From contig OZ024751.1 in NCBI GenBank assembly GCA_964016885.1, positions 5,890,001-5,954,000 on the forward strand: a stretch of DNA of 64,000 nt. Direction: 5' to 3'. Positions 5,121-61,386 of the stretch are shown here, one piece after another; the first letter of the stretch is position 1; each line of letters opens with the position of its first letter. Below the pieces are notes generated by a model that was not told the origin of the DNA, searched no databases, and saw only the letters and a list, made by a program, of their open reading frames with translations. The translations under genes were made by a program, and so were the position numbers. This DNA comes from Eledone cirrhosa (lineage: Eukaryota).

Positions 5121-5822
5121 ACCGCCGCTCACGCCACGTAACGTGGTTCAATCCTCCCCACAATGCCGAGGTGGCAACACTTATCGGGCAAATCTTCTTT
5201 AGGCTCCTCGACAAACACTTCCCACTACAACACCGCTACCACAACATAATCAACAAAAACACTGTCAAGCTATCCTACAGCACCACACCTAACTTCGCAC
5301 AGAACAACGTCTTCTCAAACACCAAAAAACTCAACCTCTATGGAAGAACAACCTAGAAATTAGTGGAGAGCCGACCAGGAGGTGTAACTGCCCTGATAGA
5401 TCTACATGCCCCTCAACAACAGATGCCGAGAACGTAACATGATCTACCAGTGCAACGTGAGGACGGACACCTCCAACAAAGCTTATATAGGATTAAGCGC
5501 TTGTGACTTTAAGACCCGGCTCTACCAACACTGACATACGTTCCGAAACCCGGTCCGGCGACATGCCACCACACTTTCGGGCCACATCTGGGACTTCCAA
5601 GATAATAATATAACTTACCATCTTACTTGGAGCTTACTGTCCAGAGCTAACTCCTACAGGGGAGGACGCCATCCGTGTAACGTATGCTCGGAGGAAACAT
5701 TACAAATGCTGTTTACGAAGGATCAACTCCTAAACCAAAAAGACGAACTAGTAACTGCATGCAAACTCAGATTGCAGAAGACTTACCTCGCTCTCAAACC
5801 CCCTAACGATCCGGGTGGGTAG
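5121..5822 (+). pseudogene. Naiad-type linker and GIY-YIG endonuclease remnant
   Basis: VTWFNPP..IGQIFFRLLDKHFP..TVKLSYS, CNC..CP..C, IYQC..AYIG..FKTRLYQH, LSGHIW, CNVCSEE, LNQKDELVTACK..PPNDPGG*. Contains frameshifts and stops. Confidence 0.85.
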
Positions 5823-7565: not shown

Positions 7566-8976
7566 ATAATTTTATTAATACAATGACAGACAGTATCACA
7601 AATTCCATCTATCATTAATGATTTTATGTCTATAATTCAATTTACTTTCTTTGCATCTCATATATCAGAGATAGCCCTATATTGTTACACTGACATTATC
7701 TTTTTTCAATATTAACTTTCTGTTTTGTCTCCGAAAAAGAAATATTTGGATAGCAAAATTCGGTTATCCTTTCAGCACGTCGGAACGTATCAAAGATACC
7801 GGAAGTACACTGAAATATAGTATAATGACATATTGTGGCTGATTTCTATCGTAAATAACTCAATAAAATATAAATATTTGGTAAAAAGGAACAATGGCAT
7901 TGATGAGAAGACATCGTAGTTTTAGGAAATTCAAATGAAAGATCGTTATTCAATATTCCCCATTTCTATTTCTGAGTCATCAAATTGATAGTCTTCGTTG
8001 AAATAAATGCTACAGATTATTCAGAAAGCCTGCTTAGAAAACGAATAGATAACGAATGCCATACATCCAAATATAAAGCAGTTTCTTTGTTCACATTAAA
8101 CATTTTGAATTTTATAAATGCTTCCCTTCAAATTTAATATATAAATTTTAAACTATATGACGATTGAGAGGAGATATTGAAAACTGTACTAAATATCTAA
8201 TCACGTTGTGTAGTTCATTCTGATATCGATTATTCAATTGCTCTGATATTTCTGGGTAGTAACATCATTTCATTGAATGCAATATTTTCATTCTCTTCTT
8301 TGGTGACAGTGGCATATGGCGCTAGAATTTGGTAGGGTCCTAATTTAATAAAGAAAAAGCGTCATATATATTTTATGGACACGAATAGAGAAAAACGGAT
8401 GAAGTGATAATAAAGCTTCATAGCGAAATGGATAAAGAAGTTTATATTGTCTAAATATTTGATAGGGATACTTATTTGCTATGTTGATAATATCCTATAT
8501 ATGTCGGTCATATTACATATTCTTTGGCTAGAATGGACAATACATAACCACCATGCCACCGAATGATATGAAGAGTATATCAAGAATCAACAACGGACGA
8601 ATATAAATGGACGGATAACTCCGTTCAGATAGCATTTATTCAGCTTCAGCGTCGAAATATAGATAGATTACTGCAAAGGTAGAGAAGTGTCTACATGTAG
8701 ATGTATTACATCTATTTAAATAGAAATGTTAACTGTATATTTTGCTATATATTTTGTCCTACAGGTAAATGTTGGGTTATTAAGCATTCATATTTCCCAG
8801 TAAAAGGCCACACGTGAAATTTCTCCGGAAAGTAATATTCTCTTGTTTGAACTACGAAATGAAATACATAAAACTATCTCCTTTATCATTTCAAATCCTT
8901 TATATCATATCTCAGCATAATAAAATATTCAAAACTATAACAATAATAGTAATGATAATCTTCTTCTTCTTCTTCT

Positions 8977-10452
8977 GACATGCGCCATTTCCGACAGATC
9001 CATCCACGACAACCTCCACCTCATGCGATACATCGTAGAGAATGTAGCTAGGGAACCTGGCACGGGTGGGTCCTTGATCAATTTAGATCAGTCGAAAGCT
9101 CTCGATAGGGTCGACCATCGTTACCTAGCGGCAGTCCTGAGGGCGGCTGGCTTTGGGCCCATCTTCAGAGGCTGGATCGCTGCCATGCACAGCGACATCT
9201 GCTCTGTGGTGAGAGTGAACGGTCACCTTTCGGAACCCTTCAACATCATGCGCTCGGTCCCCCAAGGATGTCCCCTCTCGTCCCTCTTGTACGTATTGAC
9301 TCTCGAGCCATTACTGCACAAACTGGAGACGTTGAGGGGGGTCCGCGCGAACTAAGATGCGGAAGATCCGTGTCAGCATATGCGGACGATGTCACCGTTG
9401 TGGTGTCGTACGCCAAACACATCGAGGCGATCGGCACTACACTAAGAAAATACGAAGCGGTGACAGGAGCAATGATCAACCAGGAAAAGTCAGTGGGCCT
9501 GCAGCTCGGCACCTGGAGAGGCAGGTCCATGCCGTCCAACAGCGTCGTCGGGCGCTGGACAGATGGACCAGTTAAATTGCTCGGGGTCTATAGAGGATTA
9601 GTGGAGGGGAAGAGCGACGACGTACTTGGGGAAACTCTAGGCGTCGACGAAAATCAACTAGCCAATCTCTTCGGAAGAACTTTCGGGCCGGGGCCTATGG
9701 ACAACTTCCAGAAATCCCTGGCCTGGCAGTGCTACCGAGGAGCTTTGCCAGTTCGGGATAAAGTCTACAGGCATGGAGGTGCCGTCAGCCGGGCATGTCC
9801 GAGATGTGCGCAGGGCGACGAAACCGTCCTGCACGCACTCGTCCAGTGTCCGAGCATTGCTGACTTGTGGGTTTATGTCGAACACCTGCTGTCGCGTGTA
9901 GGACGGATCCAGCTATCAGCTGAGTCCATCTTCCTTTACCCGGGAAGGGAAGGCAATTTTTATCTGTCTGGTGGCCATGGCGAAAGAGATAGTATGGTGG
10001 ACATGTTTGAAAAGGTTGAAGACGACCACTTACATCTTCGGTGATGCCCTGATTAACTTTTTCAAATTTCATTTGAAAAGGAAAATCAGGGTAGAAAAGG
10101 AAGTGCTCTCTTCCCAGCATTTTGTTGAAAGATGGGTGAGAGAAGCAAGAATGGCCCGAGTGAATGGGCCTAATCTGAGTATGTGTCTGTAAATTAAAGG
10201 TGGAAAACTGGGAGAGGGCACTTGCCCTGGTGGTCAGGGTCACTGTGGATTTTTAATGGGCTTTCTCTACCAATGTCCCTCGGAAGTCTCCCCCCTATTG
10301 GGGAATTTTTTCATTGTTCTATTATTACATCCTCTGTTTCTTTTTTTAACACGCAGAAATGCCCATTTCGTACCGCCCTGTATTCTCCTGTACTGTCCTT
10401 AATGTAAACCCTTGTGGTTAATAAAGAAATCATTATTATTATTATTATTATT
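8977..10452 (+). mobile_element. 5'-truncated, internally deleted Tx1-like LINE copy
   Basis: Highly similar to 14426-16460 but lacks ~15040-15573 and ~20 bp near 15915. Ends AATAAAGAAATC(ATT)n. Confidence 0.95.
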
Positions 10453-10670: not shown

Positions 10671-12741
10671 ATGGCTACGAAAAAGAAATTTCATAGGTCA
10701 CTCCCACTCATTCCGTCTTCTTCTTCCTCAATCATCACTACAGCAGAGAGAAGATTGTCTCTCTCCCTCCCTTCTCTTTCGCAAGCGACGAAAGAAAAGA
10801 AAAGTCTCGTGCAAAGCGTGCAAGATTTCTCCACGACGACGACGACAGCGACGAAACAGGTGTGCGGGAAATACGAAAACCCAGTTCATTCGTCTGACGT
10901 CAGGAATAATAGCAGTAGCAGCCGTAATAACAACAGCAACAGTGACAATGAAAACAACAGTAGCAGCCGCAACAGCATCACCAGCAGCATAAACAACAAC
11001 AGCATTAGCAGCAGCAACACCAACAACAACCACAGCAACAGCGGCGGAGGCAGTAGTCGTAGTACCTGCAGCAACAACAAAAGTACCAGCAGCTCTGACG
11101 ACAACAACAACAGCAGAGAAAAACCAATCTCATTTGCAGGTATTGCGAAAAATTTGGAAACAATCCTCATAACAAATGAGGAATTAGAGGAAGCGAAGAA
11201 GATGGTGACAAAGAACGGACACCGAGCAATCTGCAAGGCAGCGAAAAATTTTTTCGAAACCCAAGAGCACTGTACGGTCACGTACCGTACAGTAAGTACA
11301 AAATCCCGTAGGGTGGAAAGAGCCACAGAGGCCCAAATACAAAAAGCCTTTGGGGTCTGTGTGGCAGAGGAAAACGCACATCACCCGAGGCAAAAAATAC
11401 GCCACCGTAGACGTACTTTTTGCCACACCCCAGGAGGCAAAGGCCCAATCAGTAGTGACCCTAAGGAGCGAGGAAATGGTGTTGGTGCACTCCTACTGCG
11501 GGCAAAAAATTGTGAGGGTCAAACTGACCCACGTCCCCCCCGGAATGACCCCTTCTTGGCTGGCCGCGTCTGTCCTCGTCGGAATCGAGGACAAAACAAC
11601 TGTACTGCAAGTACAGAAAAAAGTAAGAGAAGATTGGGTCGGCTCCTCCATTGAGATGCTAATCCAAACCAACCAGGAGTGCATCGAAGCTATCCCGGAT
11701 GTGATAGACTTCGATAACGGCACTCAACTGCCCATAAGTGTTGAGGGCAAACGCCCGAAATGCTTTCGCTGTGGATCGAAGACTCACCTCAGGGCCTTCT
11801 GCAACGAGAAGACCCTGAGAAAGGAGAAAACCCCCCTCCTTCCGAATCCGGCTCCACGGCTACCAGCAACAGGACAAGCGGCAACCAGGAACGATAGGTC
11901 CGTGGCACCCATACCCACTCCACGGAAATCAAAGACAGCAGCAGCAGTGGAAATATTAACAACAACAACAGCAATACCAAATGCAGCTGCAACAGAGACT
12001 CCAGTGCAAACATCACCAACAACAACAAGTGAAAGAGTGGAGCTGGTACCCCTCCCCGTGCTTACAGAATCAGACATGGAGTGTGAGGTGGGAGAGGGAT
12101 GGCAAACGGTCGCAAGAAGGCACAAACGCAGAAGCAGCGCATCGTCGCCTTTGAAAAGGGAGGAAAGAAATAAGAAAAGGGTAAAGTCTACTGCAAAGAG
12201 ACCCACAGCAGCAACACCACCAACACCATCACCACCCACACCAGCACCACCATCACCACCGGCGACAACCCCACCGCCAACAACACCTTCAACACCACCA
12301 CCACAAGCACCAACATCGCAAAAACAACAACAAAACACACACACCCAGCAACAACGACAAGAAAATAGCAGAACCACACCCCACCCCCAGAAAAACAAAT
12401 GCACGGCAATAAACACACACAACAAGAAACTAATGACTTACATAATTGAACACACAGACATTTCACAACAGGACTACATAATACCAGCACCAATCAAAAC
12501 GCCAACTAACATAAGACTGCTAAAAATAGCACAGAAACAATACACAAACACTAAAACGAAATTCCCCAACGCAGTTGGTGATTTCAGGGACCTAGGAGGA
12601 ACCATCAATCGAAGAGTATATTCAGACATTCTCTTAGAAGAGCCGACGACCAGCCGAAGGGACGATTCAACGGTCCCTTCACCAGACGATCAAGTGAAAA
12701 GGGATGTAAAAACCATCCCTCCTCTACCAAAAGTACGGTAA
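10671..12741 (+). pseudogene. Tx1 ORF1 (nucleic-acid chaperone with zinc knuckle), one frameshift near 11352
   Basis: N/S-rich N-terminus (10671 frame) joins the 11350 frame at TTTGGGGTCT. CX2CX4HX4C knuckle CFRCGSKTHLRAFC and P/T-rich tail. Confidence 0.85.
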
Positions 12742-12776
12742 GTGGTCTTTCCCATCTTTTCCACTCTATTTTAAAC

Positions 12777-15700
12777 ATGACCTCACTCAGAATAGGCAGC
12801 ATAAATGCGCGTGGCTTGGGGTCGTCATGGAAGCAGGGTCACCTGCTCAACGACCTCAGGTCACTAAACATAGATGTAGTGGCCATCAGCGAGACCAGAA
12901 TCTCCGAAGCACGGGCCTTCGCACCGATCTTCGGCGGCTACGATGTGTACGCATCTCCCAGCCGTCCTGGATCGGGTGGAGGAGTTGCTGTGCTTTTTCG
13001 GAGAGGTTTGGATCTCGCCATACGGGCCATCTTCCTGGACCCAGAGGGTAAGCTGGTGGTGCTGGACGTGACCAGCGGAGACGGGCAAGCTTTCAGGCTA
13101 GTGGCCGTCTATGCCCCGACAGGAGCAGGGCGGCCTGATTTCTTCCGGCGTCTGGAGACCTTTCTTGGAACGTCCCGCTCTTTAGTGTTAGTGGGCGACT
13201 GGAACGGGATCTTAGATGCACGCTGGGACTGTGTGGGATTAGCGGATAGGGGTGGAGGGTGCAAGAGCCTCACCAACCTGCTCAGGCGTTTTGAACTGTC
13301 TGACAGGTAGCGATTGGATTTCCCGAATGTGCCAATGTGGACTTGGACAAACCGCATAGGGTCATCCAGATCATATCTAGATAGAGTATTTTGTAGGGAA
13401 ATAGATAGGTCTAGCATAGGCTGTCCACAATTCAAGATAGTCAGCTACACGGACCACAAATTCGTGACCTGTGTGCTTGACTTAGATAGGCTTCATAGAC
13501 GAGGACCCGGCTACTGGAAGCTAAACGCGTCCTTACCAGCGCGCAAGGCCTACAGAGACCGGATTAGCGAACTAGTTAAGCGGGCGTTGACGGGGGCCAT
13601 CGTCAACAACAAGTGGTGGTTTGCTCTGAAAAGAGCGATTAGAATAGAATCGATTAGGTTTAGTAAGGCTTTAGCAATAGAGAAAAATAGAGCAGAGGGA
13701 GAACTAGTTAGAAAATTAGACGAGGCGCTTAGCAAAGGCATTGCGACCGACGTGCTTGCGGCGAAATTGGCCCTTGACCAATTCTTCAATGCAAAGCACG
13801 AAGGCTGCGTTGTCAGAGCAAGGGTGCGTGCTCTCAGACACGAGGGGACGAAAGCCGTTCAATGGGCCCGAGTGGCGGAGGCGCGTCGTGGCAACAAAGC
13901 CACGATCCGGTCTTTGGTGGACCACGACGGGCGCATGCTACTCGATCCCGGGCAAATGTGTGAAGCTTTTCAGCGACACTTCGCTCAGCTGTTCGGGGGC
14001 AGCGGTGGGCCGGGTAGAGGAATGGACTTTAGTGTCTACCTCGACGGACTGCCGCGGCTCTCGGCCACTGAGGCGAAGTGTTGCGAAAAGCCGATAACTG
14101 CCGCTGAAGTAAGGGAGGCAATGACTGGCTGCACAAGGGGTAAATCGCCTGGTTTGGATGGTCTGCCCTATGAACTTTACGTACAGATGCCAGACTTGTT
14201 CGGAGGCCTCTTGGCGGACGTCTACTGCAACTGGCAACAGAACGGGAGAATTCCAAGTTCTGTGAGCCGAGGAGCGGTGGCACTGCTGAGAAAGGATCCG
14301 AACAAGGGGGATAACATAGAAAATTTCCGGCCCATAACTCTGCTAAACACAGAGTTTAAGATTTTGGCCAAGGTGCTAGCAAAGAGGTTGGCGCTTGTCG
14401 TTGGTGGTCTGGTGGGAGAGGCGCAGACATGCGCCATTCCCGACAGATCCATCCACGACAACCTCCACCTCATGCGATACATCGTAGAGAGGGTAGCTAG
14501 GGAACCTGGCACGGGTGGGTCCTTGATCAATTTAGATCAGTCGAAAGCTTTCGATGGGGTCGACCATCGTTACCTAGCGGCAGTCCTGAGGGCGGCTGGC
14601 TTTGGGCCCGTCTTCAGAGGCTGGATCGCTGCCATGCACAGCGACATCTGCTCTGTGGTGAGAGTGAACGGTCACCTGTCGGAACCGTTCAACATCATGC
14701 GCTCGGTCCGCCAAGGATGTCCCCTCTCGTCCCTCTTGTACGTATTGACTCTCGAGCCATTACTGCACAAACTGGAGACGTTGAGGGGGGTCCCGCGCGA
14801 ACTAGGATGCGGAAGATCCGTATCAGCATATGCGGACGATGTCACCGTAGTGGTGTCGAACGCCAAACACATCGAGGCGATCGGCACTACACTAAGAGAA
14901 TACGAAGCGGTGACAGGAGCAATGATCAACCAGGAAAAGTCAGTGGGCCTGCAGCTCGGCACCTGGAGAGGCAGGTCCATGCCGTCCAACAGCGTCGTCG
15001 GACGCTGGACGGACGGACCGGTTAAATTGCTAGGGGTCTGGTTCGGTCCGGACCTCCAGACGGACAAAAACTGGGACGAGGTGACGAGCAGGGTGGCTTC
15101 TCTCACCCAGAAATGGGCCGAGAGGAAGCTATCCCTGAAAGGTCGAGCGGAGGTGGCTAACGCGTACATCGCGTCCGTCATCTGCTACCGCCTGACCGTC
15201 GTACCTTGTCCTAAGCCTCGCCTGACTGTGCTGGAGCGTTTGCTCTTTCGCTTTTTGTGGAAGGGACGCGCTCCGATGGTCAGGCGGTCCATCTGTTGTC
15301 AACACCCGCTACGTGGAGGGCTGGGCATGCCGTGGCTGATGATGCGCAGGCACGCGCTCAGGCTACGACATGTCCACCTCTTCCTCGACGGTGATCAGGT
15401 GTGGTCGCCGTTTGCTAGACGCGTGTTTCCCCAGCTCGTTTCCTTGACGGAGCTGCAGTCCTGGGTCAAGCGAAGACCGAGAGGGAGCGCCTGGAGACTG
15501 GAATGTCTTCAGGCGCTCACAGCCCTCGACCAATCGGGCAATGTGATCGGTGGAAACTCCACCTCGGCGTTCTATAGAGGATTAGTGGAGGGGAAGAGCG
15601 ACGACGTACTTGGGGAAACTCTAGGCGTCGACGAAAATCAACTAGCCAATCTCTTCGGAAGAACTTTCGGGCCAGGGCCTATGGACAACTTCCAGAAATC

Positions 15701-16196
15701 TCTGGCCTGGCAGTGCTACCGAGGAGCCTTGCCAGTTCGGGACAAACTCTACAGGCATGGAGGTGCCGTCAGCCGGGCATGTCCGAGATGCGCGCAGGGC
15801 GACGAAACCGTCCTGCACGCACTCGTCCAGTGTCCGAAAATTGCTGACTTGTGGGTTTATGTCGAACACCTGCTGTCGCGTTTAGGACGGATCCAGCTAT
15901 CATCTGAGTCCATCGTGAGGATTGCCCCGCCCTCCTCCTTTAGCCGGGAAGGGCAGGCAGTTTTTATCTGTCTGGTGGCCATGGCGAAAGAGATAGTATG
16001 GTGGACACGTTTGAAAGGGCTGAAGACGAGCACTTACCTCTTCGGTGATGCTCTGATTGACTTTTTCAAATTTCATTTGAAAAGGAAAATCAGAGTAGAG
16101 AGGGAAATGCTCTCTTCTCAGCATTTTGTTGAAAGATGGGTGAGAGAAGCAAGAATGGCCCGAGTGAATGGGCCGACTCTGAGTATATATCTGTAA
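12777..16196 (+). pseudogene. Tx1 ORF2 (APE endonuclease, RT, zinc finger), single in-frame TAG at 13308-13310
   Basis: NARGL, SET, GDWN, YLDRV, TDH; KSPGLDG, FRPITLLN, QGCPLS, YADD; CPRC..ETVLHALVQC. Confidence 0.93.
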
Positions 16197-16703: not shown

Positions 16704-17393
16704 GGCGTCTGACGTTTGAAGATGTGAAATTGTGTGCTTCAACAAGGGTCTTAGACAGACACAACATCCCTGTATATATGTGTAGTGCCCAACAAGTCAG
16801 ATTGTGTAGGAGAGCAGTTTGGGATTCGAGGTAACATCTCAATACTATTGGTATCGAACTCAAAGCTCTGTTTATGACGAAAATCCTCCAAATGATGTTA
16901 GTTATTAATAAACACGATCCTGCAATTTCGATCCTGAAGACAGCGTATCTTGTGATTTATTCGGTGTCTTTCATGGCACCATTCTGTATCTGCTTTCAAT
17001 ATCTAGGGATATTTTACCCTATTTCCTCGTCTTTTGCCTCGAGAAAAGTTTAATTATGGCATACTGATGAGGGTAGTTTTTTTTTAGTTTGCTAATTATC
17101 CATTTCATTATGGTAATTGTACTGTTTTCTCAAGATCCGAAACAATGTTGTCCAGGACTGTAGTAGAACTCTCCAAGTCTACTGCTACCGTAATGGAAGG
17201 AATATTTGTAATGCGCTTCTCGACTCAATGTTATTTATTTACAAGATTAAAAATGTTCAACCCATAACATATTGTGAAGTAAGGGCGCTGTGGTTTTAAT
17301 ATTCTTAGCACTAATCTACATTCAGCGTTTAATGTGCATCGAGTCGAGATTTGGTATATCTATATATATTCATGTATATATTCATATACATAC

Positions 17394-17460
<67 letters not shown>

Positions 17461-18461
17461 GGTTTGTGGTTCACCACTGTATAGAGCTGGTCTATTCCGT
17501 ATGGTCAATCGTAATGTAATAATATAGAGAGTACTCAACGTAAAGCAGTTCAACCGTCTTTGTTTTTGTAGTTTGTGGTGCTATTACGGAGTTAAATATT
17601 ATAATGAAATGACAGCAGGCTGGATTTGTGTAAATCCTTGAACGGAGCGCGGCCGGTTTTTAACCGCCACATAGTACCTTTAAATTACAGATCAAATCAG
17701 AACTATTAGATATATCAACCTTAAAATGTTAAACTGTTTAACTTTAAATTTTCTAATTTCTTTGATATTAATTATTAATTATTAATTTTTAACTTCATCC
17801 TATAAGTCTAAACAAAAACGTAATGTTTCAATCTTCTGCTCACACATTATAACACACTGACCCCCACTATATTCACCTCTGCTAAGATACGGGTCCCTGT
17901 GAACATTTTCTCGCGCCACTCCTGGCCTGATTGTAGTCTGACATTAATATCGACCTTTCTTCCTCTTTCTTTCTATCTTCCTTCTTGTTGCCATCAACCT
18001 TTATACTTCTACTTCTTCCTTTTCTTCCTTCTTTTCTACCCTCTTTCTGTCTTCCTTCCCCCTTTTTGTTCGCCTATATCTGACCGGTAGTAGTTGTTTA
18101 GATACGGGTCCCGTGGAATAAAAAAATTTCTTCGCGACAATCCTGGCCTGACTGTAATACCGACCTTTGCTCCTCTTTCTTTCTGTCTTTCTTCTTATCG
18201 CTGACATTAACCCTGGCTTCTCTTCTTCTTCCTTCCCTCTTCTTCTCTCTCCTTCATTTCTTTCTTTCTTTTGTCTTGTAACTTATGTTCCCACCCCTTT
18301 CTGTTTTCCTTTATCTGACCGGTAGTAGCACACTGTGAGCCTTAGCCACGTCACTCGAGGGCGACCGGCTAAGATAGAGGGTGCAAGATAGCGGTCGCCC
18401 TCGGGTCCTCGATTTTCAGCCCCATGGATTTTATCTATTACATTCACGTATTATATTTCGA

Positions 18462-18519
18462 ATACCTGATGATATCACCGGATTCATACTGAACCCGGTC
18501 ATTGAAATGATCATAGTAT
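18462..18519 (+). ncRNA. Type-I hammerhead ribozyme
   Basis: ATAC-CTGATGA-T-ATCACCGG...CCGGTCAT-T-GAAA-T GATC A-TA-GTAT, with palindromic loop III and AUA site. Confidence 0.85.
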
Positions 18520-20723
18520 AATAAACCTTTCAAGGATTTACACAAATCCAGCCTCCTGTCATTTCATTATAATATTTAACTCCGTAATAGCACCACCAAC
18601 TACAAAAACAAAGACGGTTGAACTGCTTTACGTTGAGTACTCTCTATATTATTACATTACGATTGACCATACGGAATAGACCAGCTCTATACAGTGGTGA
18701 ACCACAAACCTGAATAAATAATGCTCCTGAGATGTCGAACACTTCCAAATGTAATAATGAACAGCGGCATGGGACTGAATATATCTAACCACCATTCGGA
18801 CTGTGGCTACTCGGTGTTTTCGCATACCGCCAACCTGGCCCATAGCTACTTCCCTCTCAGAATATTCGGACCTCGACGAAACTCTACGGATTATACCATC
18901 ACATGTATTGTACTGCACTGTATCAACTGAATTCGCTACCCTATACTTCTGGGCATGTCTAACTCACACTGAATTCCCAGATTCGAACACACAGTGACTC
19001 CATTTCCACATCTATATGCATTATCTGACTGTAACTTGAACTATATTGTATTTCTCCTGTGTCCTGAACTATCCATTTACCCGACTCTTGTTTGTTTATT
19101 TATATCTTTATATCTTTATTTGCTGTATTAATGCTTTTCCACATATTCTACCTCTATACATCCATGTACTTTTTACTTCCCTTATTCGGACTTTTACTCG
19201 CGTGTACCCTTAGCACACGACACTAGTGTGTCTCCCCCTGGGAACATTAATACTGCAACATGAACTATATTGTACTTCTACTATGTCTTGTTTTCTCCAT
19301 CTTACTCCAACACCACTCTTGTTGGTTTATTTACATATTTATATCTATATATTGATATATTTATATATTTATACCTTTGCTTTATCAATGTGCTCTTCCA
19401 CGTATTCCACTTCTATGTATCCATGTATTTCCACTCCTCCTATTGGGACTTTTGCTCACTTGTCCCCATTAGCACACGACACTAGAATGTCTCCCCCTGA
19501 GAACAAAAATAAATATTACCCGACTATATCCCGTACTGTACATCCCACTAAGACAAATTATAGATCTACATAATACAATTAACGTCTCTTCATAAAAGAC
19601 TCTCTTTAATTAAACCCCGCAACCCAAAACCTTATAAAAGTTTTTTTTATAGGTTTGATTTTCAATTTTCTGTTTGTTCAGTTCTTAATCCCCTTAATCT
19701 TTAATTTTATAATGTTATTCTGAATTCCTTCAACTTCATCCTATAAATTTAAACAATATTTTAAAGTTCCAACTTTCTGTCGGGCTGTTGGGTGGGTTTT
19801 AATGGCGGCGCCCCCTGAGGCAAGGGCCTACCTTGAGTGCTTGGAAAAATAAATTTCCCCTTCTTTCGGTAAATGAAAATACTCAGAGTGGCTTAATTCG
19901 TCTCGGAGTGCGGCCGGTTTTTAACCGCCACATAGTACCTTTAAATTACAGATCAAATCAGAACTATTAGATATATCAACCTTAAAATGTTAAACTGTTT
20001 AAATTTAAATTTTCTAATTTCTTTGATATTAATTATTAATTATTAATTTTTAACTTCATCCTATAAGTCTAAACAAAAACGTAACGTTCCAATATTCTGC
20101 TCACACATTATAACACACTGACCCCCACTATATTCACCTCTGCTAAGATACGGGTCCCTGTGAACATTTTCTCGCGCCACTCCTGGCCTGACTATAGTCT
20201 GACATTAATATCGACCTTTCTTCCTCTTTCTTTCTATCTTCCTTCTTGTAGCCATCAACCTTTATACTTCTACTTCTTCCTTTTCTTCCTTCTTTTCTCC
20301 CCTCTTTCTGTCTTCCTTCCCCCTTTTTGTTCGCCTATATCTGACCGGTAGTAGTGGTTTAGATACGGGTCCCGTGTAAAAAAAAAAACTTATTCGCGAC
20401 AATCCTGGCCTGACTGTAATACCGACCTTTCCTCCTCTTACTTTCTGTCTTTCTTCTTATAGCTGACATTAACCCTGGCTTCTCCTCTTCTTCCTTCCCC
20501 ATTTTTCTCTCTCCTTCCTTTCTTTCTTTCTTTTGTCTTGTAACTTATGTTCCCACCCCTTTCTGTTTTCCTTTATCTGACCGGTAGTAGCACACTGTGA
20601 GCCTTAGCCACGTCACTCGAGGACGACCGGCTAAGATAGAGGGTGCAAGATAGCGGTCGCCCTCGGGTCCTCGATGTTCAGCCCCATGAATTTTATCTAT
20701 TACATTCACGTATTATATTTCGA

Positions 20724-20781
20724 ATACCTGATGATATCACCGTATTTATACGGAACCCGGTTATTGAAATGATCATAGTAT
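20724..20781 (+). ncRNA. Type-I hammerhead ribozyme (second copy)
   Basis: Same core as 18462-18519, 2262 nt downstream. Confidence 0.85.
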
Positions 20782-20970
20782 AATAAACTTTTCAAGGATT
20801 TACACAAATCCAGCCTCCTGTCATTTCATTATAATATTATATATATATATATATATATTTAATACAGTTTTACAATAGATTAGAAGCACTCCAAAGTTAT
20901 GGTTTTCCGGAGTTATTAATATTAATTTAAAATATTAACAAATATAGACATTCTTGTGATCGAGTATATG

Positions 20971-21029
20971 TTATTATACATATTTCAGAGGTACTGAGCT
21001 ATTTACAACAGTACGTCCTCATCAGATAA
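20971..21029 (-). ncRNA. Type-I hammerhead within pLTR-like fragment 20860-21119
   Basis: TTAT-CTGATGA-GGAcGTACTG...CAGTACcTCT-GAAA-T ATGT A-TA-ATAA. Adjacent 30-bp inverted repeat at 21047-21118. Confidence 0.75.
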
Positions 21030-21119
21030 AATAAGATGATGCTTGACATACCTTGACTATGTTGATGGTTAAAATTTGAAATATCCTGAATTTTAACCAT
21101 CAACATAGTCAAGGTATGG

Positions 21120-21436
21120 CGCGAAATTTATTATAATTATTGACCAACCAATCAAATTACTTCTCGAAAAACTTGGCATTTCGAGCCACTTTTTCCATAT
21201 AAAACAAGTAACATTCAGAGACCAACCAGATGTGAGAAAAACCACAGACCCTCCATCTCAACTCTACTTTTGAAAAGCAGAAGAACTGCGAAACCGGTAA
21301 AGGAACCAAATAAATATATATTTAAAAAAAAAAAATAAGACTCCAGTTGCATTTTTCGATTTCATCTTTTTTACTTTATACTTTCACTCGTGTAGGACAC
21401 CTCGGTTATTTTTCATTTTGTAAAAAAAAACCTCAC

Positions 21437-23834: not shown

Positions 23835-23890
23835 GGCTTTCTGATGATTTATTACGAATGAAACAGTTCTAGTCCTGAGATGTCATTTCT
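23835..23890 (+). ncRNA. Degenerate family D hammerhead
   Basis: CTGATGA-TTTattacGAAT-GAAA-CAG ttctagtc CTG; the cleavage dinucleotide is missing. Confidence 0.5.
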
Positions 23891-25006: not shown

Positions 25007-25380
25007 TTTAATATAGGAATGGCTTCGACAGGACAAGAGCTGTTTCATTCGAAGGACATCATCAGGAAAGTCGACTATCGATGTGATATAGATGGTATTT
25101 ATACATTTTCTGTTGTTAAGGGAAGGTGGTGATTGGGATGGGGGGGGGGGGAGGTCATTGGCTGATGGATTTAAAGAAAGGGGATTCTTCTAAATTTTTC
25201 AAAGTATCCCCATTCTTTAAATCCCTCAGTCAATGACCTCCGCCCATCCCAATCACCACCTTCCCTTACCAACAGAAAATGTATAAATACCATCTATATC
25301 ACATTGACAGTCGGCTTTCCTGGTGATTTCTTTCGAATGAAGCATTTCTAGTCCTGTAGAAGGTATTTCTATATTAAATA
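25007..25380. mobile_element. Family D fold-back element with HHR (25022-25071 -; decayed + copy ~25314-25364)
   Basis: ~180-bp inverted arms centred ~25198. Minus reads TTTC-CTGATGA-T...T-GAAA-CAG ctcttgtc CTG-TC-GAAG. Confidence 0.7.
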
Positions 25381-31938: not shown

Positions 31939-34900
31939 TCTATATATATAAAACAGAAGATGTCTGTCTGTTTGTGTAACCGCATGCATTTCTACATTTT
32001 ACAACCGATTTGCACCAAATTTCATACATAGGTTTCTGAAGTCCTATTACGCGTCGTCGGCTATTTTATTTTTCGGTACATCTACTCTGGGGACCCTCAG
32101 GGACAGGTAGCCGCCTTAAGCCTCTCCCTTCGACTTATCTATTGAAGTTCACATTAACACTGTATTAGTACCTGATAACTTTTTAAGTTTACGTTCGATC
32201 TTCGTTTTCACTTTCAAAACAACAATCATCTTCGGATGAAATTTCAGAAATGTAAACATCTGATTCATTTGAAGATAAATCACTAATATTATCTTTTGTT
32301 TCTTGTTCATTTTGAATGTCGTCGTGTGTAAAAACTTGAAAGTCGGTATCGCTACTTTCATAAGCAATGTTGATACAAACAAAAAATCTATTCTACTTTC
32401 AACGTTAAAAAAACACGTGTTGTTTTAAGTTGTTTCACTATATTAAGTGTTAATTGTCGCGGTAAGGGCCTAATCTCTCAGTAACCTCGAATTGACGAGA
32501 TTTTGATGACGGTATTGTTTATTTTTAGAACGATATTTAAGTGTGGGTGTTACGGCGGTTTTGGGCGGTTTGAACAAATAAAGGGGAAATAATTCCGGCC
32601 GGTTTGAACAAATAAAGGGGAAATAATTCCGGCCGGTTTGAACACTAAAGGGTTAAAGGAGGTTTAGTTAATGTGTTTATGGTTCCAGTTTATCATGCTG
32701 TGATTTTTCGGCCATTTTTGCCTGTATCCTTTCAATGGTTAGTACTTACTTTGCGTTGCCCCTAACTTAAAACCTGAAATTTGACTGGTACACAATATCT
32801 TGCAAAATATATCCACTTTCTCAGACCACATAGATTTATCATATTTTTTCACAATTTATATCCGTGTTTTATTGCTTACTTAAACGTTTATTGTTCACTA
32901 TTTATCGTTCTCCCTGGTTAATTTTCTAGAAACAATGCGCCCCAAGAAAAGAACTCTCATTGTTCGATTATCTAATGATGCAAGTAGGTCAAAGCGAAGG
33001 CGTAAATGCAACTGCGATCAGGCTCTCACTGAATGCTGTGCAGACGGCAGCTGCAAGAGCGGAGGAGGATGACAGTCGGCGTGAACTTCGACGGAACAAA
33101 AGTGCTGCCGCGACTGCTGCTGCTCGCGCACGAGAGGATGAAGGATGACGTGCCGTTCGACGTAGCAGGGATGCCGCTGCAACATTTGCTGCTCGCGCAT
33201 GAGAGGATGAAGGACGACGCGCCATTCGACGAAGCAGGAACGCCACTGCCACTGCTTCTGCACGAAATACTGAAACCATAGAGCAACGACGTGGCCGTCT
33301 TCTGCAAAGTGAACAGCGGTGATCATCGTTACATGGCATTTCTAGGACTTGCAATTCACGATGGTTGTTGAAGGCCTTTAACTACGACCCCTCCTCGGAC
33401 TACGTCGTCCATGCAGATATTCAAATTGGGGAAATGACCTCTACTTGCTAGTTTTGTCGTACGAAAAAGTGGCCAGGGGAGAGAGATGGAATGTGTTGTT
33501 CAAACGATAAAGTTAGACTACCTCCTATTCGCGACTCTCCAGAGACATTGCAACTCCTTTTGACAGACACGACGAGGGAATCATCGAGGTTTCTGCGTAA
33601 TATCCGCCGCTACAATTCCGCGTTTCAGATGACATCTTTCGGAACGTGGGTTCATGCCAACTTTCAAGGTCCAGGGGCAGATTTACCACTTGATTGGATG
33701 TATGCAGCCTATAGAAAGGATCCTCAATTTCTTCAGTCATACTTCGTTGGAAACTATCAGGAGCAGGCAGAGATGCGAAATTCTATTTGGTCCGAAACTA
33801 ACATTGGAACCAGAATAAAACTTCAAGAAATGCTCACGAGAAAAACAGCTATGTTCGCAGTTTCAAGTACGCTTTGGAAACAGCTACCGACCAAAACTTT
33901 AGTGTGGTCATACATGCTGACCGAAGGCCATCTGGAGAACACGCTGGTCGGTTCAACGCACCAACATGTAATGAGATTGCTGCGGTTATTTGTGGTGAAC
34001 AGCACAACAAGAGAGATATCATTCTAAAGCACCGAGACAGCACATTACAGCGTATGAGACACACAGGTCCTACAATGCACTCCAGTATCCATTGCTATTT
34101 ATCAACGGCGAGGACGGATACCATTTCGGCATTCCTCAACATTCGGCAGGCAATGGTGAGGCACATCTTAGGAAAACTTTCACCTGCATGGATTTTGTAT
34201 GCTTTGCGATTTATGGTAAGGGACAATTCATTCAACCACCTACACCGTTCTCGTGACCTTTTCCAACAATTTGCTGTTCATATGGCCGTTAAAATGGAGT
34301 CCGAGAGATTATGGTTCATTAAATTAAATAAAAAGAAACTTCGATCTGAATGCTACATTCATCTATGCGATGGAATTAACAACGACTTATCCCCAGACAA
34401 TTTAGGGCAAGTGTGTATTTTGCCTTCAGCGTTCACAGGGGGACCCCGATACATGCACCTGAGGACTCAGGACGCCATAACCTACGTACGATATTATGGG
34501 CGCCCCGACATTTTCATAACGTTTACATGCAATCCCAAGTGGAGGGAGATTACAAATGAACTGTTCCACGGTCAAGCGCCAAGACACAGGCACGATCTCA
34601 TAGCAAGAGTGTTTCGCCTGAAATTATCCAGATTAATGGATTTATTAAAGAAAGGACAGGTTTTTGGGTCTGTCAGGTGCAACATGTACACGGTTGAATG
34701 GGAGAAACGAGGGCTGCCGCATGCCCATATCTTGATTTGGTTGGTTACAAAAATCAGTTCAAACTACATCAACAAATTCATTTCTGCCGAACTAACTGAT
34801 CTGTCGATTGACAAGGACCTCTTCTCTATAGTCACATCAAACTGAGTCCATGGTCCTCGTGGACATGGACTCAATATGAAGTCCCCGTGCATACACGACG

Positions 34901-37230
34901 GAAAGTGTACAAAACGATATCCCAGGCCGTTTTTACAGGAAACACAGACTGGCGGTGACGTATATCTGTTGTATAGGCGCAGGAGACCTGAAGACAGTGG
35001 GTTCACAGCAAAAAGTTGGTGAACGTGAAATCGGCAACAGCTGGATAGTGCCATATTGCCCCCTCCTTTTGAAAGCGTTCAACGCCAATATAAACGTCGA
35101 ATTTTGTAACTCAGTAAAACCAATTAAATACGTTTGTAAGTACGTAAACAAGAGATAGGATGCTGCCGTATTTGGTCTTCGTCATGAAAACAGTAGAGAC
35201 GAGGTATCTGACTACCAAGCAGGCCGATACATTAGCAGCAATGAAGCCTTTTGGCGCGTTTTCAGCTTCCCACTGCACCAACGACACCCCGTCTTTAAAC
35301 AACTTGCCGTTCACCTTGAAAACGGTCAACGGGTGTATTTCAATGATGCAACAGCTGCTCAGCTAGCGATCTCACCAAAGGAAACTACGCTCACCTCTTT
35401 TTTCAAACTTTGTCAACACGACGACTTCGTTCGAACTCTGCTGTATTCTGAGATACCGTCTTACTATACATGAAACAGGATAAAATGGCTACGAAGGAAG
35501 GTAGGGCAAGAGGTGTTTGGACATCCAGGCATCAAATTCGACAATTGCCTTGGGCGAGTTTATACGGTCCACCCTACCCAACACGAATGCTTCTACCTGC
35601 GACTTCTACTTCATGAGGTAAGAGGGCCGACTAGCTTCACTCATCTGAGAACCGTCGATCGATACGCCTGCGCAACGTACAGGGAAGCCTGCTTGAGGCG
35701 TGGACTTTTAGAAGATGACGCACAATGGGATGCAACCTTGACGGAAGCTGCCATCTTACATTTCTCCCGTAGTCTAAGAGCACTTTTTGCTATCCTCTTG
35801 CACGTCTGTGAATTGCGCGATCCTTACTCTTTATGGCAAAAGTTTAAAGATGATTTCGCAGACGAATATAGGCGTCTCGCTCAATTGCAATCTCAAAACT
35901 TAGATTTCAGACGCTATATATATAATAGAGCTCTGATCGATATTGAAGACAGACTGGCTTCAATGGGTGGAGATGTCTTGGAGAAATATGGGCTTCCGCA
36001 AAGACTTCGAGATGAGCCATCTGACATTCCCAACGTCATTATACGTGAAACGTCATATGATGTCGACGAGCTCAAAAGGTATGTTGAAGAGAATGAACCA
36101 AAACTTCTAATGGATCAAAAACAAGCCTACAACATTGTCGTTGATTCCATCTGTAATCGGGGAGGGCGTATATTCTTCCTGGACGCACCTGGAGACACGG
36201 GAAAAACATTTGTAATCACTCTTTTACTCGCTGCAGTGAGGCAACACGGAAACATCGCATTGGCCGTGGCTTCTTCCGGCATAGCAGCAAATTTGCTGCC
36301 TGGTGACAGGACGGCCCATTCTTCAGTATTTCTCTCAACGTGGCATCATCTCAGACACCCACATGCAAAATCAGCAAGTCTTCCGGAAAAGCGCTGGTGT
36401 TAAAGCGCTGCCTACTAATTGTTTGGGACGAATGCACAATGGCCCACAGGGCGGCTTTTGAGGCATTACACCGGTCACTCAAAGACATCAGAGACTGTTA
36501 AGAACGAATGGGAGGTGTCATGTTCCTGTTATCTGGGGACTTCCGACATACTCTGCCTGTAATCCCAAAAGGTACGCGGGCTGATGAGGTTGGTGCATGC
36601 CTTAAGGCCTCCCCCTTTGCCATTATGTAAGAAAGCTGACGCTTACAAAAAACATATGAGCACAACTGCAAGGTGATGAGACATCAGCGGGTTTTGCTGC
36701 TGCCATTCTGTTGTTGGGAGATGGCAAAGTCCCACTCGACGGAGATGGTACAGCCGACCTCACAGGGATTTGCAGATGCGTTAAGTCAATTGCTAAGTTA
36801 CGGACGTCTGTTTTTCCTAATCTTAAGGAGAACTACACAAATAAAGAGTGGTTGTGTGAACGCGTAATATTGGCTTCGAAAAACCACATAGTTGGAGGCA
36901 CCAATGAACAGCTCCTGCTGTGCTTGCCTAGAAACTTGCATGTCTTCAAGTCCCTTCACACTATGGCTGATCCGGAGGAAGTTGTTAATTACCCCACAGA
37001 ATTTCTTAACTCCCTAGACTCTCCCGGATTGCCACCACACTTACTGCGACTTAAGAAAGGTGCCCCTGTCATGCTCCTCAGAAATTTGGAACCCCGAAGG
37101 CTTTCCAACGGCACGCGTCTGGTCCTCCAAAAGGCGATGCCTCATGTTATTGAGGAAATAATACTTACAGGATGTGGTAAGGGGGATACTGTCTTCATAC
37201 CAAGGATACCTCTCATTCCATCCGGTAAAG
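31939..37230 (+). mobile_element. Decayed autonomous Helitron, 3'-truncated
   Basis: 5' TCTATATATATAAAACAGAAGATGTCTGTCTG terminus, 34-bp tandem repeat ~32567-32643, and RepHel coding remnants. Confidence 0.9.
32935..37225 (+). pseudogene. Helitron RepHel (HUH Rep plus PIF1-like helicase)
   Basis: GRPDIFITFTCNPKW, VEWEKRGLPHAHIL, IKYVCKYVNK; LDAPGDTGKTF, VWDECTM, SGDFR, PVMLLRNL..LSNGTRL, FIPRIPL. Many frameshifts and stops; last helicase motifs absent. Confidence 0.92.
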
Positions 37231-37232
37231 AC

Positions 37233-37511
37233 AAGTTCCTTATATTAAAAAATTCATCATTTTACGATCGTTTCTGCTATGTGTATGTGTGTTGGTATGT
37301 ATATCATATAGATCTATGTAAAAATATTACGAATTATCAGAGGAAATATACATACCTTCACATATATACGCGGCATCTATATGTGAAGGTATGTATATTT
37401 CCTCTGATAATTTGTACTATTTTTACATAGATATATATGATATACATACCAACACACATATACATCCCAGAAACGATCGTAAAATGATGAATTTTTTAAT
37501 ATAAGGAACTT
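37233..37511. repeat. ~135-bp-arm fold-back abutting the truncated Helitron
   Basis: Near-perfect inverted repeat centred ~37371 containing GAAACGATCGTA. Confidence 0.85.
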
Positions 37512-38523: not shown

Positions 38524-38559
38524 TCTTAACATTTCGGACGCTAGTCCTTCATCAGTAGA
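38524..38559 (-). ncRNA. Minimal hammerhead in family F copy 38440-38690
   Basis: TCTA-CTGATGA-A-GGAC tagc GTCC-GAAA-TG-TT-AAGA. Confidence 0.7.
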
Positions 38560-54214: not shown

Positions 54215-54632
54215 CAAAAGTTTTATTTAAAATTGTTGGGTTACAACGAGTAAATATTTTATAACTGATATAAAGCACTCAACAAGTTTTCGAGTAGATA
54301 TACGATATTAAACAAATGGAAACTATATTTATAAAACCATATCTATTTCATTATACATATTTCAGGGATACCATATTAAAAATATGGCATGCCTTCTTCA
54401 GATAAAATACAATATATAAGCAGTTTTATAAATAAATTTGACGTACCATACCAACTTTTTTAAATGGAAGTTGATCAATATTTTATGGTACGTCAAATTT
54501 ATTTATAAAACTGCTTATATGTTGTATTTTATCTGAAGAAGGCATGCCATATTTTTAATATCGTATCCCTAAAATATGTATAATGAAATAGATATGGTTT
54601 TATAAATATAGTTTCCATTTGTTTAATATCGT

Positions 54633-54874: not shown

Positions 54875-54919
54875 AGTCACTGAAGAGGTCACAGAGTGTG
54901 TGACGAAAGAACTATGACT
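54875..54919 (+). ncRNA. Minimal hammerhead in family G element 54665-55078
   Basis: AGTCA-CTGAAGA-G-GTCACA gagtg TGTGAC-GAAA-GAAC-TA-TGACT: perfect 5-bp stem I and 6-bp stem II. Confidence 0.8.
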
Positions 54920-55070: not shown

Positions 55071-58409
<3,339 letters not shown>

Positions 58410-58513: not shown

Positions 58514-58955
<442 letters not shown>

Positions 58956-59086: not shown

Positions 59087-59739
59087 ATGAAAACGAAATT
59101 TCATTTCTCACTCTTAGTACGGCACTTACTTAAATGTAAGTATTTATGGATACGTACATACATATATGTGTACAGACGTACAGTAGTATGTATATATATA
59201 TACATACATGCAAACATATATATGTGCACGTATCGGTTTACCGAACATTTATTATAATGTACGTATAATTATTATAATGTATGTATATATATATACATAC
59301 TACTGTACGTCTGTATAGATATATGTATGTACGTATACATACTTATATTTAAGTAACAGCCGTCCTAAGAGTGAGAAATGAAATTTCGTTTCATTTTTTC
59401 CGTTTATCGTTTTCGGTGCCCCGGCCGATTAACTCACTCGATATACAAATTAGGCTGCTCAGCCGTTGATATGCATAAGGAAAGTATATACTTTCAGAAG
59501 TTCAATCATCTGGCAGGAAGGTATACGTTGCTGACGATAGCTAATAGGCTTGAAACTGGTACAGCGTTCATTTGTCAGTGTTGAACAAATGAGCAACGAT
59601 GATTGCTAGACACTGTACAGCTTAATTCGGGATGTTTGTTTACAAACACACCGAGCATTGGAATAAATGTTCGGTGAATCCATACGTACATATATATATA
59701 TGTGTGCATGTATGTATATATATATACATACTACTGTAC

Positions 59740-59743: not shown

Positions 59744-59837
<94 letters not shown>

Positions 59838-60255
59838 GATTAATTATCTCCTCTACCCCGTGTATGTACCTTGGCTTGGTGGGTTACATCCAATATAAAT
59901 CTAAGACTGACCGGCGCATTGAATCTAGGGGCAACCAGGGATTGAGTATAGCCTTTCCTGTCTTATTAAATCCTGTGCTGCTTCAGTTTTGATACTTCTC
60001 GACTTTATCATTAATTTCACTAGTATGGATAACTAGGAATATATGGCATATATTACGACATCGACTGGCGGTTAATACCCTTCTAGCTGCGCTCGGGGCA
60101 CTTGGGTCTGTCCACCTCCTTGAGTGCTTTGGAATAAATTAAAGTTTCCTTTTCTACGGTTTACCGTAACACTTGGACTGGTCGGTTGGCCTTTGGGTCC
60201 TGGGTGTATTGGGGGGTCGCAATTTTCAGTTGTTGTTAACCGCCATACCATACTA

Positions 60256-61328: not shown

Positions 61329-61386
61329 ACACCTGAAGATGTCACCGGATTCTTAGGCAACCTGACCACTGTAATGTGCATAGTGT
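61329..61386 (+). ncRNA. Degenerate hammerhead upstream of the PLE ORF
   Basis: ACAC-CTGAAGA-T-GTCACCGGATTC...T-GTAA-T GTGC A-TA-GTGT (A13 mutated). Homologous to the 18462 HHR. Confidence 0.65.

Follow-up and report, generated by a model that had tools for sequence, protein, structure and literature searches.

What is the 2.26-kb stretch that lies between two hammerhead ribozymes (HHRs) near 18 and 20 kb of the window (the whole 64,000-nucleotide stretch of Eledone cirrhosa DNA analysed here), and how was it moved there? The original prediction was an unusually large, retrozyme-like parasite derived from a Penelope-like element (PLE) whose coding copy lies in the same window. We find that 17451–20838 is an aged, protein-less PLE insertion of textbook layout, consisting of 1.41 copies of a 2,262-nt HHR-to-HHR unit and a 195-bp inverted copy, with the following parts:

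17384–17457, unstranded: (TA)n microsatellite on the left side, into which the element inserted
17451–17645, minus strand: inverted, 5′-truncated terminal copy, reverse complement of 18526–18720 (97.9%, blastn E 3e-93, 4 differences)
17643–18576, plus strand: upstream direct pseudo-LTR (pLTR), a 5′-truncated partial unit (935 columns, 31 differences from 19904–20838)
17885–18328, plus strand: pyrimidine-rich internal duplication, two copies of ~210–230 nt (67%), found again at 20146–20590
18516–20777, plus strand: the 2,262-nt unit from HHR to HHR, with 38% GC and lacking a convincing ORF
18552–18576, plus strand: CCTCCTGTCATTT box and the element's main 3′ end (runs X1 and X5 show a depth step here)
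18577–18720, plus strand: tail extension of ~140 nt to a second end, on the inverted copy only; an ATG follows at 18721
19028–19511, plus strand: second internal duplication, two copies of ~225–260 nt
19904–20838, plus strand: downstream direct pLTR with (TA)n at its end, paired with 17643–18576
20839–20858, unstranded: right (TA)n microsatellite

The direct pLTRs are 935 bp long and 96.7% identical. The inverted copy begins 11 nt past the place where the HHR is predicted to cleave, and its ~140-nt tail leads into (TA)n, which flanks both ends and makes a target-site duplication unreadable. Published PLE insertions have direct pLTRs, a tailed pLTR in inverted orientation and (TA)n as target (PMC3846280, PMC8557442), and the insertion matches this arrangement in its partial tandem forming the pLTRs, its inverted 5′-truncated copy, its one-sided tail and its target. 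The direct pLTRs, the tailed inverted copy and the (TA)n ends had gone unmentioned in the original prediction. The sub-repeats that it placed at ~17885/18100 and ~19040/19262 are present (17885–18093 and 18100–18328, 67%; 19028–19252 and 19252–19511, 70%), together with a third pair (19698–19779 and 20020–20099, 76%). Just past the right (TA)n, the minus strand holds a further HHR-like motif (20975–21025) that is unrelated.

The region is repeat-rich and microsatellite-flanked, as might be expected of a DNA-level duplication or an assembly artefact involving no retrotransposition. We consider this highly improbable, since there are 31 differences in 935 columns between the repeats, other sequencing runs have depth steps at both outer ends, a contig of run X5 (18514–18720) ends independently at 18720 and continues into TA-rich sequence, and the layout agrees with published PLE insertions.

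The CTGATGA cores of the two ribozymes start at 18466 and 20728, 2,262 nt apart, and each is followed by GAAA-TGATCA-TA.

18462–18519, plus strand: HHR1, type I PLE-like hammerhead, predicted cleavage after 18515
20724–20781, plus strand: HHR2, core intact and stem II decayed, predicted cleavage after 20777

HHR1 is built of stem I (ATAC/GTAT), CTGATGA, an interrupted 11-pair stem II, GAAA and a palindromic stem III (ATGATCAT); the pLTR HHR thus shows the features described for PLE hammerheads (PMC4209133), with a conserved core, a short helix I and a helix III that is palindromic. In HHR2, four substitutions in stem II remove two pairs and change its energy from −8.2 to −2.1 kcal/mol. The claim of two intact HHRs 2262 nt apart thus holds for the spacing and for both cores but not for the second stem II. 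Both ribozymes have an A-U pair behind a U·U mismatch at the place where PLE hammerheads typically have G10.1-C11.1. The predicted cleavage would probably be weak and take place as a dimer. Rfam searches gave no hammerhead match at E ≤ 10 in 17400–20900 (seven weak unrelated matches) and no match of any kind at gathering thresholds in the whole window. Single-strand folding of three HHR regions (z −0.8 to 0.2) and of the leader (z −0.8) was unremarkable, and the HHR pattern had no match in metagenome scans.

The description of the monomer as ORF-less is borne out. Read as a circle, the unit has no ATG-ORF longer than 96 aa on either strand, and a profile built from 66 proteins of related PLEs finds no match above 3 bits in it. 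The best tblastn matches of 74 and 86 homologues (E 0.016 and 0.009, respectively) are scattered over frames and strands and were rejected as an ORF remnant, apart from an inconclusive patch at 18781–18891 in the following frame:

18718–18927, plus strand: 69-codon open frame with weak likeness to the GIY-YIG C-terminus of the clade of the neighbouring PLE at 59.8–64 kb

Against the endonuclease (EN) profile, the frame scores 2.3 bits, which is reached by 27 of 2000 shuffles; in pairwise comparison (best of 74 homologues), 5 of 150 shuffles are as good. Its only phmmer match, P0075, was rejected as a 12-fold repeat protein that sums weak repeat scores. The ATG at 18721 opens with MLL, as do many homologue N-termini. 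This start codon and the patch in the same frame would fit an internal deletion, unique or rare, in an autonomous PLE of Nematis-like type with a ~2-kb 3′ UTR, of which the related copies would be 5′-truncated pieces of the coding parent. Such a deletion is a serious possibility, if not the one we prefer, and deleted PLE copies are common (PMC3846280, PMC8557442). However, another of the 180 tiles outscores the patch (2.6 bits), and the unit has no match at E<0.01 to any of the seven closest relatives. A clear remnant would be expected after a recent deletion.

The neighbouring element, with the unit's counterpart to its upstream region, is laid out as follows:

19831–19891, plus strand: island in the unit homologous to neighbour 60118–60181 (z 5.3, 0/100 shuffles)
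59836–61450, plus strand: neighbour upstream pLTR region, with insert
60256–60600: ~350-bp insert resembling an RTE 3′ end (a label that rests on its translated motif), with a 10-bp duplication at 60246 and 60601
61329–61386, plus strand: neighbour HHR, with compensatory changes in stems I and II; GAAA is replaced by GTAA, and it is predicted to be inactive
61765–64000, plus strand: disrupted RT ORF from a Nematis-like PLE, continuing past the end of the window (Pfam RVT_1, E 1.6e-15)

Judged by motif, the neighbour is Nematis-like. Its homologues have an RT and, at the C-terminus, a GIY-YIG; in the first 14 of 74, we read the C-terminal GIY-YIG, CCHH, a short Cys linker, DKG and GxKF, the last in 10 of the 14. 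The assignment compares these homologue motifs by eye with the Nematis rows in the supplement of PMC8557442, the neighbour's own EN lying beyond the window. Assignment to Naiad or Hydra was rejected on the C-terminal position of the EN and the presence of DKG, GxKF and CCHH. The RT had one distant locus (31%) in the metagenome scan. With stops at 62371–62373 and 63935 and frameshifts near 62640–62670 and 63700–63710, the copy reads as dead and unable to make protein.

As had been claimed, the HHR of the unit and the sequence downstream of it match the neighbour: 54 nt of the ribozyme align at 76% (E 4e-4), and CCTCCTGTCATTT occurs exactly at 18552, 20814 and 61426, with one mismatch at 17607 on the minus strand (0.08 expected by chance). 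The tile comprising HHR plus box reaches z 13.5 (0/100 shuffles). The island and the HHR are 897 nt apart in the unit and about 860 nt apart in the neighbour once the insert is subtracted. In a comparison of three sequences only (both unit HHRs and the neighbour HHR), 90.7% of cells are paired in the HHR structure versus 24–45% in slid controls, and three pairs are changed on both sides between unit and neighbour; the neighbour has G-C at the G10.1-C11.1 place where the unit HHRs have A-U. The proposed alignment with 59.85–61.45 kb was only partly significant: 3 of 25 tiles of 59836–61800, forming the two islands, match the unit at 0/100 shuffles, but the upstream region as a whole shows no significant collinearity with the neighbour (9/100 block shuffles). 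The leaders of the two elements are unrelated (248/500 shuffles), and a supposed leader island common to the two, near 18681 and 61562, was rejected on that count.

Kinship of the unit with the neighbour's lineage is seen directly in these islands; their collinearity and the compensatory changes in the HHR stems argue for common ancestry, the neighbour being a distant relative. Common descent with the neighbour's PLE lineage is supported, and the part of the claim that fails is the neighbour copy as autonomous partner, since that copy is dead (two stops, two frameshifts, GTAA core) and shares only two significant DNA islands with the unit. The window also bears HHR motifs and ORF fragments of several further PLE families, so that adjacency of the neighbour means little. 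It could still be argued that the unit derives from, and is moved by, the family represented at 59.8–64 kb, because the two have the same HHR type, the exact 13-nt box, the second island and the conserved spacing, and the RT of that family could recognise these common elements as cis signals. The condition of this copy, the weakness of adjacency, the match at only 84 of 123 columns (68%) over HHR plus box and the 3 significant tiles among 25 make this unlikely. Within the window, we found no intact helper, and no intact autonomous partner whose termini match closely. The neighbour's non-coding stretch upstream of its HHR exceeds 1.1 kb; its length, with the spacing conserved, also fits an internal deletion of a coding element.

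Evidence on other copies comes from four of 11 listed sequencing runs (X1, X5, X6 and X9) with three organism labels, in which summed depth is not a copy number. In X1, 5248 contigs match (758, 1067, 1859 and 1564 by identity class), and depth is present in 30/30 bins for X1, 26/30 for X5, 23/30 for X6 and 30/30 for X9. The family sequence is multi-copy, with many diverged copies, in runs with all three labels. Summed X1 depth runs from 596k (18482–18557) through 110k, 75k and 5.2k to 0.54k (18786–18861) and climbs to 29k towards 19905. Being highest at the ribozyme and lowest just past the tail, with steps near both ends, it fits the gradient of 5′-truncated retrotransposition. A depth spike at 19318–19393 was discarded as AT-rich low-complexity matching.

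The side of the ATG is where the deletion reading and an ORF-less family differ. If a 2.5-kb ORF normally lay between, depth should drop at 18731; at 1694 it is not below that of 18844–18982 (584–1019), which favours ORF-less relatives. An X1 contig of depth 312 covers 18760–18952 with 21 substitutions and 12 gap letters, indicating that this part is not coding-like in an abundant relative either. Among the contigs listed, none spans the unit and none is continuous over 18720–18760, as a deletion would allow; among the loose ends listed, none leads into coding sequence between 18721 and 19000, contigs breaking at branch points. Each of the four runs has the joint from 19900 to 17657, which both readings predict. 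Run X9 is weak evidence, as 14776 of its 14921 reads fit only in part. Its molecule-end positions, including 18576, were dropped: three of the six listed (17683, 19855 and 19898) sit at AATT and look like RAD-library restriction ends. A joint from 19603 to 17723 was set aside because it occurs in X9 only, with a 34-nt side.

On balance, we favour a family of non-autonomous PLEs whose unit is unusually long and was likely copied in trans by the RT-endonuclease that a related Nematis-like element encodes at another place in the genome. We infer mobilisation in trans, priming at two ends and the ORF-less state of the other copies. A longer-than-unit RNA, produced by tandem read-through or by reading an HHR-cut unit round more than once, would be bound by the helper protein, whose endonuclease would nick both strands of (TA)n. 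From one nicked end, cDNA synthesis would start at the main 3′ end (18576/20838) and extend for 1.41 units; from the other, it would start at the tail end (about 18720) and halt 195 nt later, with 11 nt left to the HHR site. The two cDNAs would meet head to head at 17643–17645. There is precedent for such steps: one PLE studied in vitro uses two internal RT start sites and cuts both strands of AT-rich DNA (PMC11167929), and both pLTR-flanked cargo moved in trans and non-autonomous PLEs are known (PMC3846280, PMC8557442). The ATG behind the tail, the borderline endonuclease-like patch and the neighbour's long non-coding stretch count against the family and fit a deletion, in which case the locus is an ordinary dead PLE copy.

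Canonical EN+ PLEs of the Nematis clade (PMC8557442, PMC3846280) share with the insertion the pLTR partial tandem, the inverted 5′-truncated copy, the tail at one end, a type I HHR in the pLTR and the (TA)n target, and the unit has DNA kinship to a Nematis-like RT element. Unlike them, the unit lacks an RT-EN ORF, its pLTR is 935 bp long, its HHR lacks G10.1-C11.1 and its tail is about 140 nt rather than 30–40 bp. The Chlamys derivatives, such as MRC1 of Chlamydomonas, and the Adineta vaga cargo likewise have pLTRs and no transposase, and non-autonomous PLEs show near-3′ likeness to autonomous families and two direct pLTRs plus an inverted one; the unit differs in belonging to the animal C-terminal-EN lineage with HHR and in that its kinship is only distant even to the nearest coding element observed. 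If the ORF-less unit does represent a family, non-autonomous PLEs and retrozyme-like elements extend to >2 kb and to cephalopods, and the PLE-to-retrozyme transition proposed in a preprint (10.64898/2026.07.22.740005) is caught with full PLE insertion anatomy kept.

The unit could instead be a giant retrozyme, whose transcript dimeric hammerheads would cleave and ligation would close into an abundant ~2.26-kb circular RNA, the template for insertion. Metazoan non-LTR retrozymes (PMC7229834 and the same preprint) are also non-coding, of <45% GC and of PLE origin, with type I HHRs at unit spacing. In addition to HHR cores at unit spacing and 38% GC, an insertion longer than the unit, the palindromic stem III (self-duplex −9.2 kcal/mol) and an inverted cDNA that stops 11 nt from the cleavage site fit such a template, and a circular-template model has been proposed for PLEs (PMC4209133). 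Nevertheless, we regard this as improbable. As a circle, the unit has an MFE of −389.6 versus −387.7 ± 12.6 for 11 shuffles (z −0.16, 47% paired) and so no excess self-pairing; G10.1-C11.1 is absent, HHR2 is decayed, and the HHRs are PLE-type rather than canonical. In one PLE tested in vitro, HHR cleavage is dispensable and uncleaved RNA is the main template (PMC11167929), and 8 of 9 Xenopus retrozyme dimers failed to cleave (10.64898/2026.07.22.740005). Retrozyme membership also fits poorly with the layout, a partial tandem with an inverted pLTR and not an array. Retrozymes carry HHRs in at least two consecutive units; here, two HHRs stand at unit spacing in 1.41 units, the second with a decayed stem II. 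Monomers measure ~170–400 nt, or 51–972 bp in the search described in that preprint (period limit 1000 at the tandem-repeat step), versus 2,262 nt.

More speculatively, and in our view doubtfully, the unit may represent an octopod family of protein-less PLE parasites whose RNA, unit-length or circular, would be freed by dimeric hammerheads, and which a Nematis-like RT would copy round the circle, beginning at two sites ~140 nt apart. The unit would then be more than twice as long as the longest reported animal retrozyme, invisible to retrozyme searches with a 1-kb upper limit on the period, and would link PLEs directly to retrozymes as an intermediate. The positions of the ends, which lie 61 and ~205 nt past the cleavage site, and of the inverted cDNA, which stops 11 nt short of it, yield predictions on whether PLEs are templated by HHR-cut RNA.

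The element extends from about 17451 to 20838 of the window and has a (TA)n tract on either side. It contains a direct repeat of 935 columns (17643–18576 versus 19904–20838; 31 differences, 96.7% identity), and its left end is a 195-bp inverted copy (17451–17645, the reverse complement of 18526–18720, with 4 differences). One hammerhead ribozyme (HHR) core lies in each direct repeat, at 18466 (HHR1) and 20728 (HHR2), and thus the unit (18516–20777) is 2,262 nt long and the plus-strand part amounts to 1.41 units. The right end is equivalent to position 18576, and the inverted copy extends ~140 nt beyond, to about 18720. In typical PLE insertions, two direct pseudo-LTRs (pLTRs) are combined with a single inverted one, and one end bears a tail (PMC3846280, PMC8557442, as far as available). 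The element matches in all of these, with a tail of ~140 nt compared with the 30–40 bp described for PLEs (PMC8557442). The spaced pair of HHR cores originally predicted is real and sits in an insertion of PLE anatomy.

The unit appears to be protein-less. A PLE protein profile was built from homologues (66 of the 74 longer ones) of the reverse transcriptase (RT) of a broken Nematis-like PLE at 59.8–64 kb (the neighbour). It picks up the neighbour and other PLE fragments, but no score in the unit exceeds 3 bits. The longest ATG-initiated ORF has 96 aa and is of low complexity. A 69-codon frame directly behind the tail (ATG at 18721) faintly resembles the endonuclease (EN) end: its EN-profile score is reached by 27 of 2000 shuffles, and the best of its 74 pairwise scores by 5 of 150. 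Another of 180 tiles, however, scores higher. This frame is unmatched by the seven closest relatives, and a phmmer search yields one repeat protein only.

HHR1 is made up of ATAC/GTAT as stem I, CTGATGA, a stem II of 11 pairs with an interruption, GAAA, and a palindrome, ATGATCAT, whose self-duplex is computed at −9.2 kcal/mol; cleavage is predicted after 18515. It fits the dimer-type PLE hammerheads in the available text of PMC4209133, with the exception of the conserved G10.1-C11.1 pair, where it has A-U behind a U.U mismatch. Stem II of HHR2 carries four substitutions, with two pairs lost and a change from −8.2 to −2.1 kcal/mol. An Rfam search gave no hammerhead match. When the three HHRs (HHR1, HHR2 and that of the neighbour) are aligned, 90.7% of cells pair, compared with 24–45% in slid controls; 3 pairs are changed on both sides, which is modest evidence because 40 of 500 shuffles reach as high a value.

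A loose hammerhead pattern gives 19 matches across the window versus 4.3 expected. The further motifs listed here probably mark the ends of several other PLE families.

Further hammerhead-like motifs, all of other sequence types
20975–21025, minus strand, pattern match
23841–23871, plus strand, faces the 25035 motif in opposite orientation
25035–25065, minus strand, faces the 23841 motif in opposite orientation
38527–38555, minus strand, pattern match
54352–54401, minus strand, pattern match
54880–54914, plus strand, pattern match
58763–58812, minus strand, faces the 58856 motif in opposite orientation
58856–58905, plus strand, faces the 58763 motif in opposite orientation
59531–59561, plus strand, pattern match

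PLE neighbours are therefore common in the window, and adjacency does not amount to partnership. This bears on the neighbour, which the original prediction had named as the likely autonomous partner. It encodes an RT (Pfam E 1.6e-15) with a relative at 63% from Octopus bimaculoides; the homologues measure ~830 aa and carry a GIY-YIG domain at the C-terminus, and their motifs, compared by eye, resemble the Nematis rows in the available part of the PMC8557442 supplement. The copy itself is dead, with stops at 62371–62373 and 63935, two frameshifts and, in its HHR, GTAA where GAAA is expected. Its pLTR carries an insert with a 10-bp duplication (60246–60610) that ends in (GAT)n and that we take to resemble an RTE 3′ end. 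Three of 25 tiles of 59836–61800 match the unit at 0 of 100 shuffles and form two islands, one being the HHR plus a short box just 3′ of it (84 of 123 columns) and the other 19831–19891 of the unit with 60118–60181 of the neighbour; their spacing agrees (897 nt in the unit, about 860 nt in the neighbour). The predicted match to the neighbour's HHR region thus holds, but no significant match is seen over the complete upstream region (9 of 100 shuffles) or in the leader (248 of 500). Kinship is real but remote, and this neighbouring copy is not the partner.

Copies were sought in four of the 11 sequencing runs covering 17645–19905 (X1, X5, X6 and X9, carrying three organism labels), aligned at 80% likeness. 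Depth is present in 30/30 bins for X1, 26/30 for X5, 23/30 for X6 and 30/30 for X9, most of whose reads match only partially. The 5248 contigs of X1 are distributed over all identity classes. Summed depth in X1, which is not copy number, peaks at the ribozyme (596k), goes down over 18576 (110k, 75k) and over 18720 (5.2k, 0.54k) and climbs again towards 19905 (29k). X5 takes the same steps (92, 35, 28, 2.4, 0), and an X5 contig (18514–18720, 3 differences) passes into TA-rich sequence at 18720. From these run data, the family is multi-copy and 5′-truncated, with two ends. Among the matches listed from the four runs, none spans the unit or bridges 18720–18760. The joint 19900 to 17657/17658 is present in all four, as expected with or without an ORF in other copies. 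X1 depth at 18731 (1694) is no lower than at 18844–18982 (584–1019), and a contig of depth 312 spans 18760–18952 with 12 gap letters; both mildly favour ORF-less continuity in other copies. At 17824, 17931 and 17989, the second repeat has the letter of nearly all X1 depth, and the differences between the direct repeats are therefore probably decay after insertion of what is probably an old copy.

At the 19900/17657 junction, where the pLTR of the studied copy is truncated and inverted, other family copies in X1 and X9 have different GC-rich, palindrome-like letters; palindromes are described at PLE inversion junctions (PMC3846280, available text).

The element had also been predicted to be retrozyme-like. 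Animal retrozymes are described as ~170–400-nt circles with strong self-pairing that derive from tandem arrays (PMC7229834), or as 51–972 bp long and of PLE origin in a 2026 preprint with a tandem-repeat search step limited to period 1000 (10.64898/2026.07.22.740005; both as far as available). The unit, in contrast, has 2,262 nt and a self-pairing z of −0.16, and we do not class it as a retrozyme because its size and self-pairing differ, although it may work like one.

We lean towards a non-autonomous PLE family. In the most probable scenario, the helper RT-EN belongs to a related but unseen PLE family; it would nick (TA)n and prime cDNA synthesis on either side, at two internal start sites of an RNA longer than one unit, which would give the head-to-head junction at 17643–17645. 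The Anolis PLE studied in vitro cleaves AT-rich DNA on both strands and uses two internal start sites, which define the tail, and HHR cleavage is dispensable (PMC11167929, available text). With its end 11 nt away from where cleavage is predicted, the inverted cDNA gives a hint of a template cut by the HHR, though this is a single observation. Non-autonomous PLEs and pLTR-flanked cargo mobilised in trans are already known (PMC3846280, PMC8557442, in the parts available). Our literature search turned up no earlier description of a cephalopod element of this kind, and the terms 'ribozyme' and 'non-autonomous' are absent from the searchable part of a 2026 Octopus vulgaris repeat paper (PMC13282606). 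The element may already be catalogued in repeat libraries, as an unnamed or Penelope consensus.

The window holds several other elements, among them a Tx1/L1-like LINE that flanks the element and whose closest named match is from Argonauta hians (69%). Together with the Octopus bimaculoides relative of the neighbour RT, this match makes an octopod host probable.

Other elements in the window
about 8900–10050, second, broken copy of the Tx1/L1-like LINE
11296–16196, plus strand, near-intact Tx1/L1-like LINE (ORF1-like, endonuclease and 961-aa RT frames)
33452–37430, plus strand, broken frames, presumably Helitron Rep-helicase by their motifs
41387–43176, minus strand, PLE in fragments that has DKT plus a linker of CxC type and, judged by eye, fits what is described for the Hydra clade
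56325–57128 and 5415–5597, both plus strand, GIY-YIG fragments of other PLEs (Pfam E 6e-7; profile matches), the first with a longer Cys linker that we take to be Neptune-like

Within the unit, the sole strongly structured 150-nt tile (19116–19265, z −4.9) lies inside the second internal duplication and is a possible cis element. To the right of the element, a stretch on the minus strand (20860–21120) adjoins the same (TA)n that closes the element. This stretch has an HHR-like motif of its own and a long, perfect-looking hairpin at approximately 21050–21118, and the microsatellite may have been the target of two insertions.
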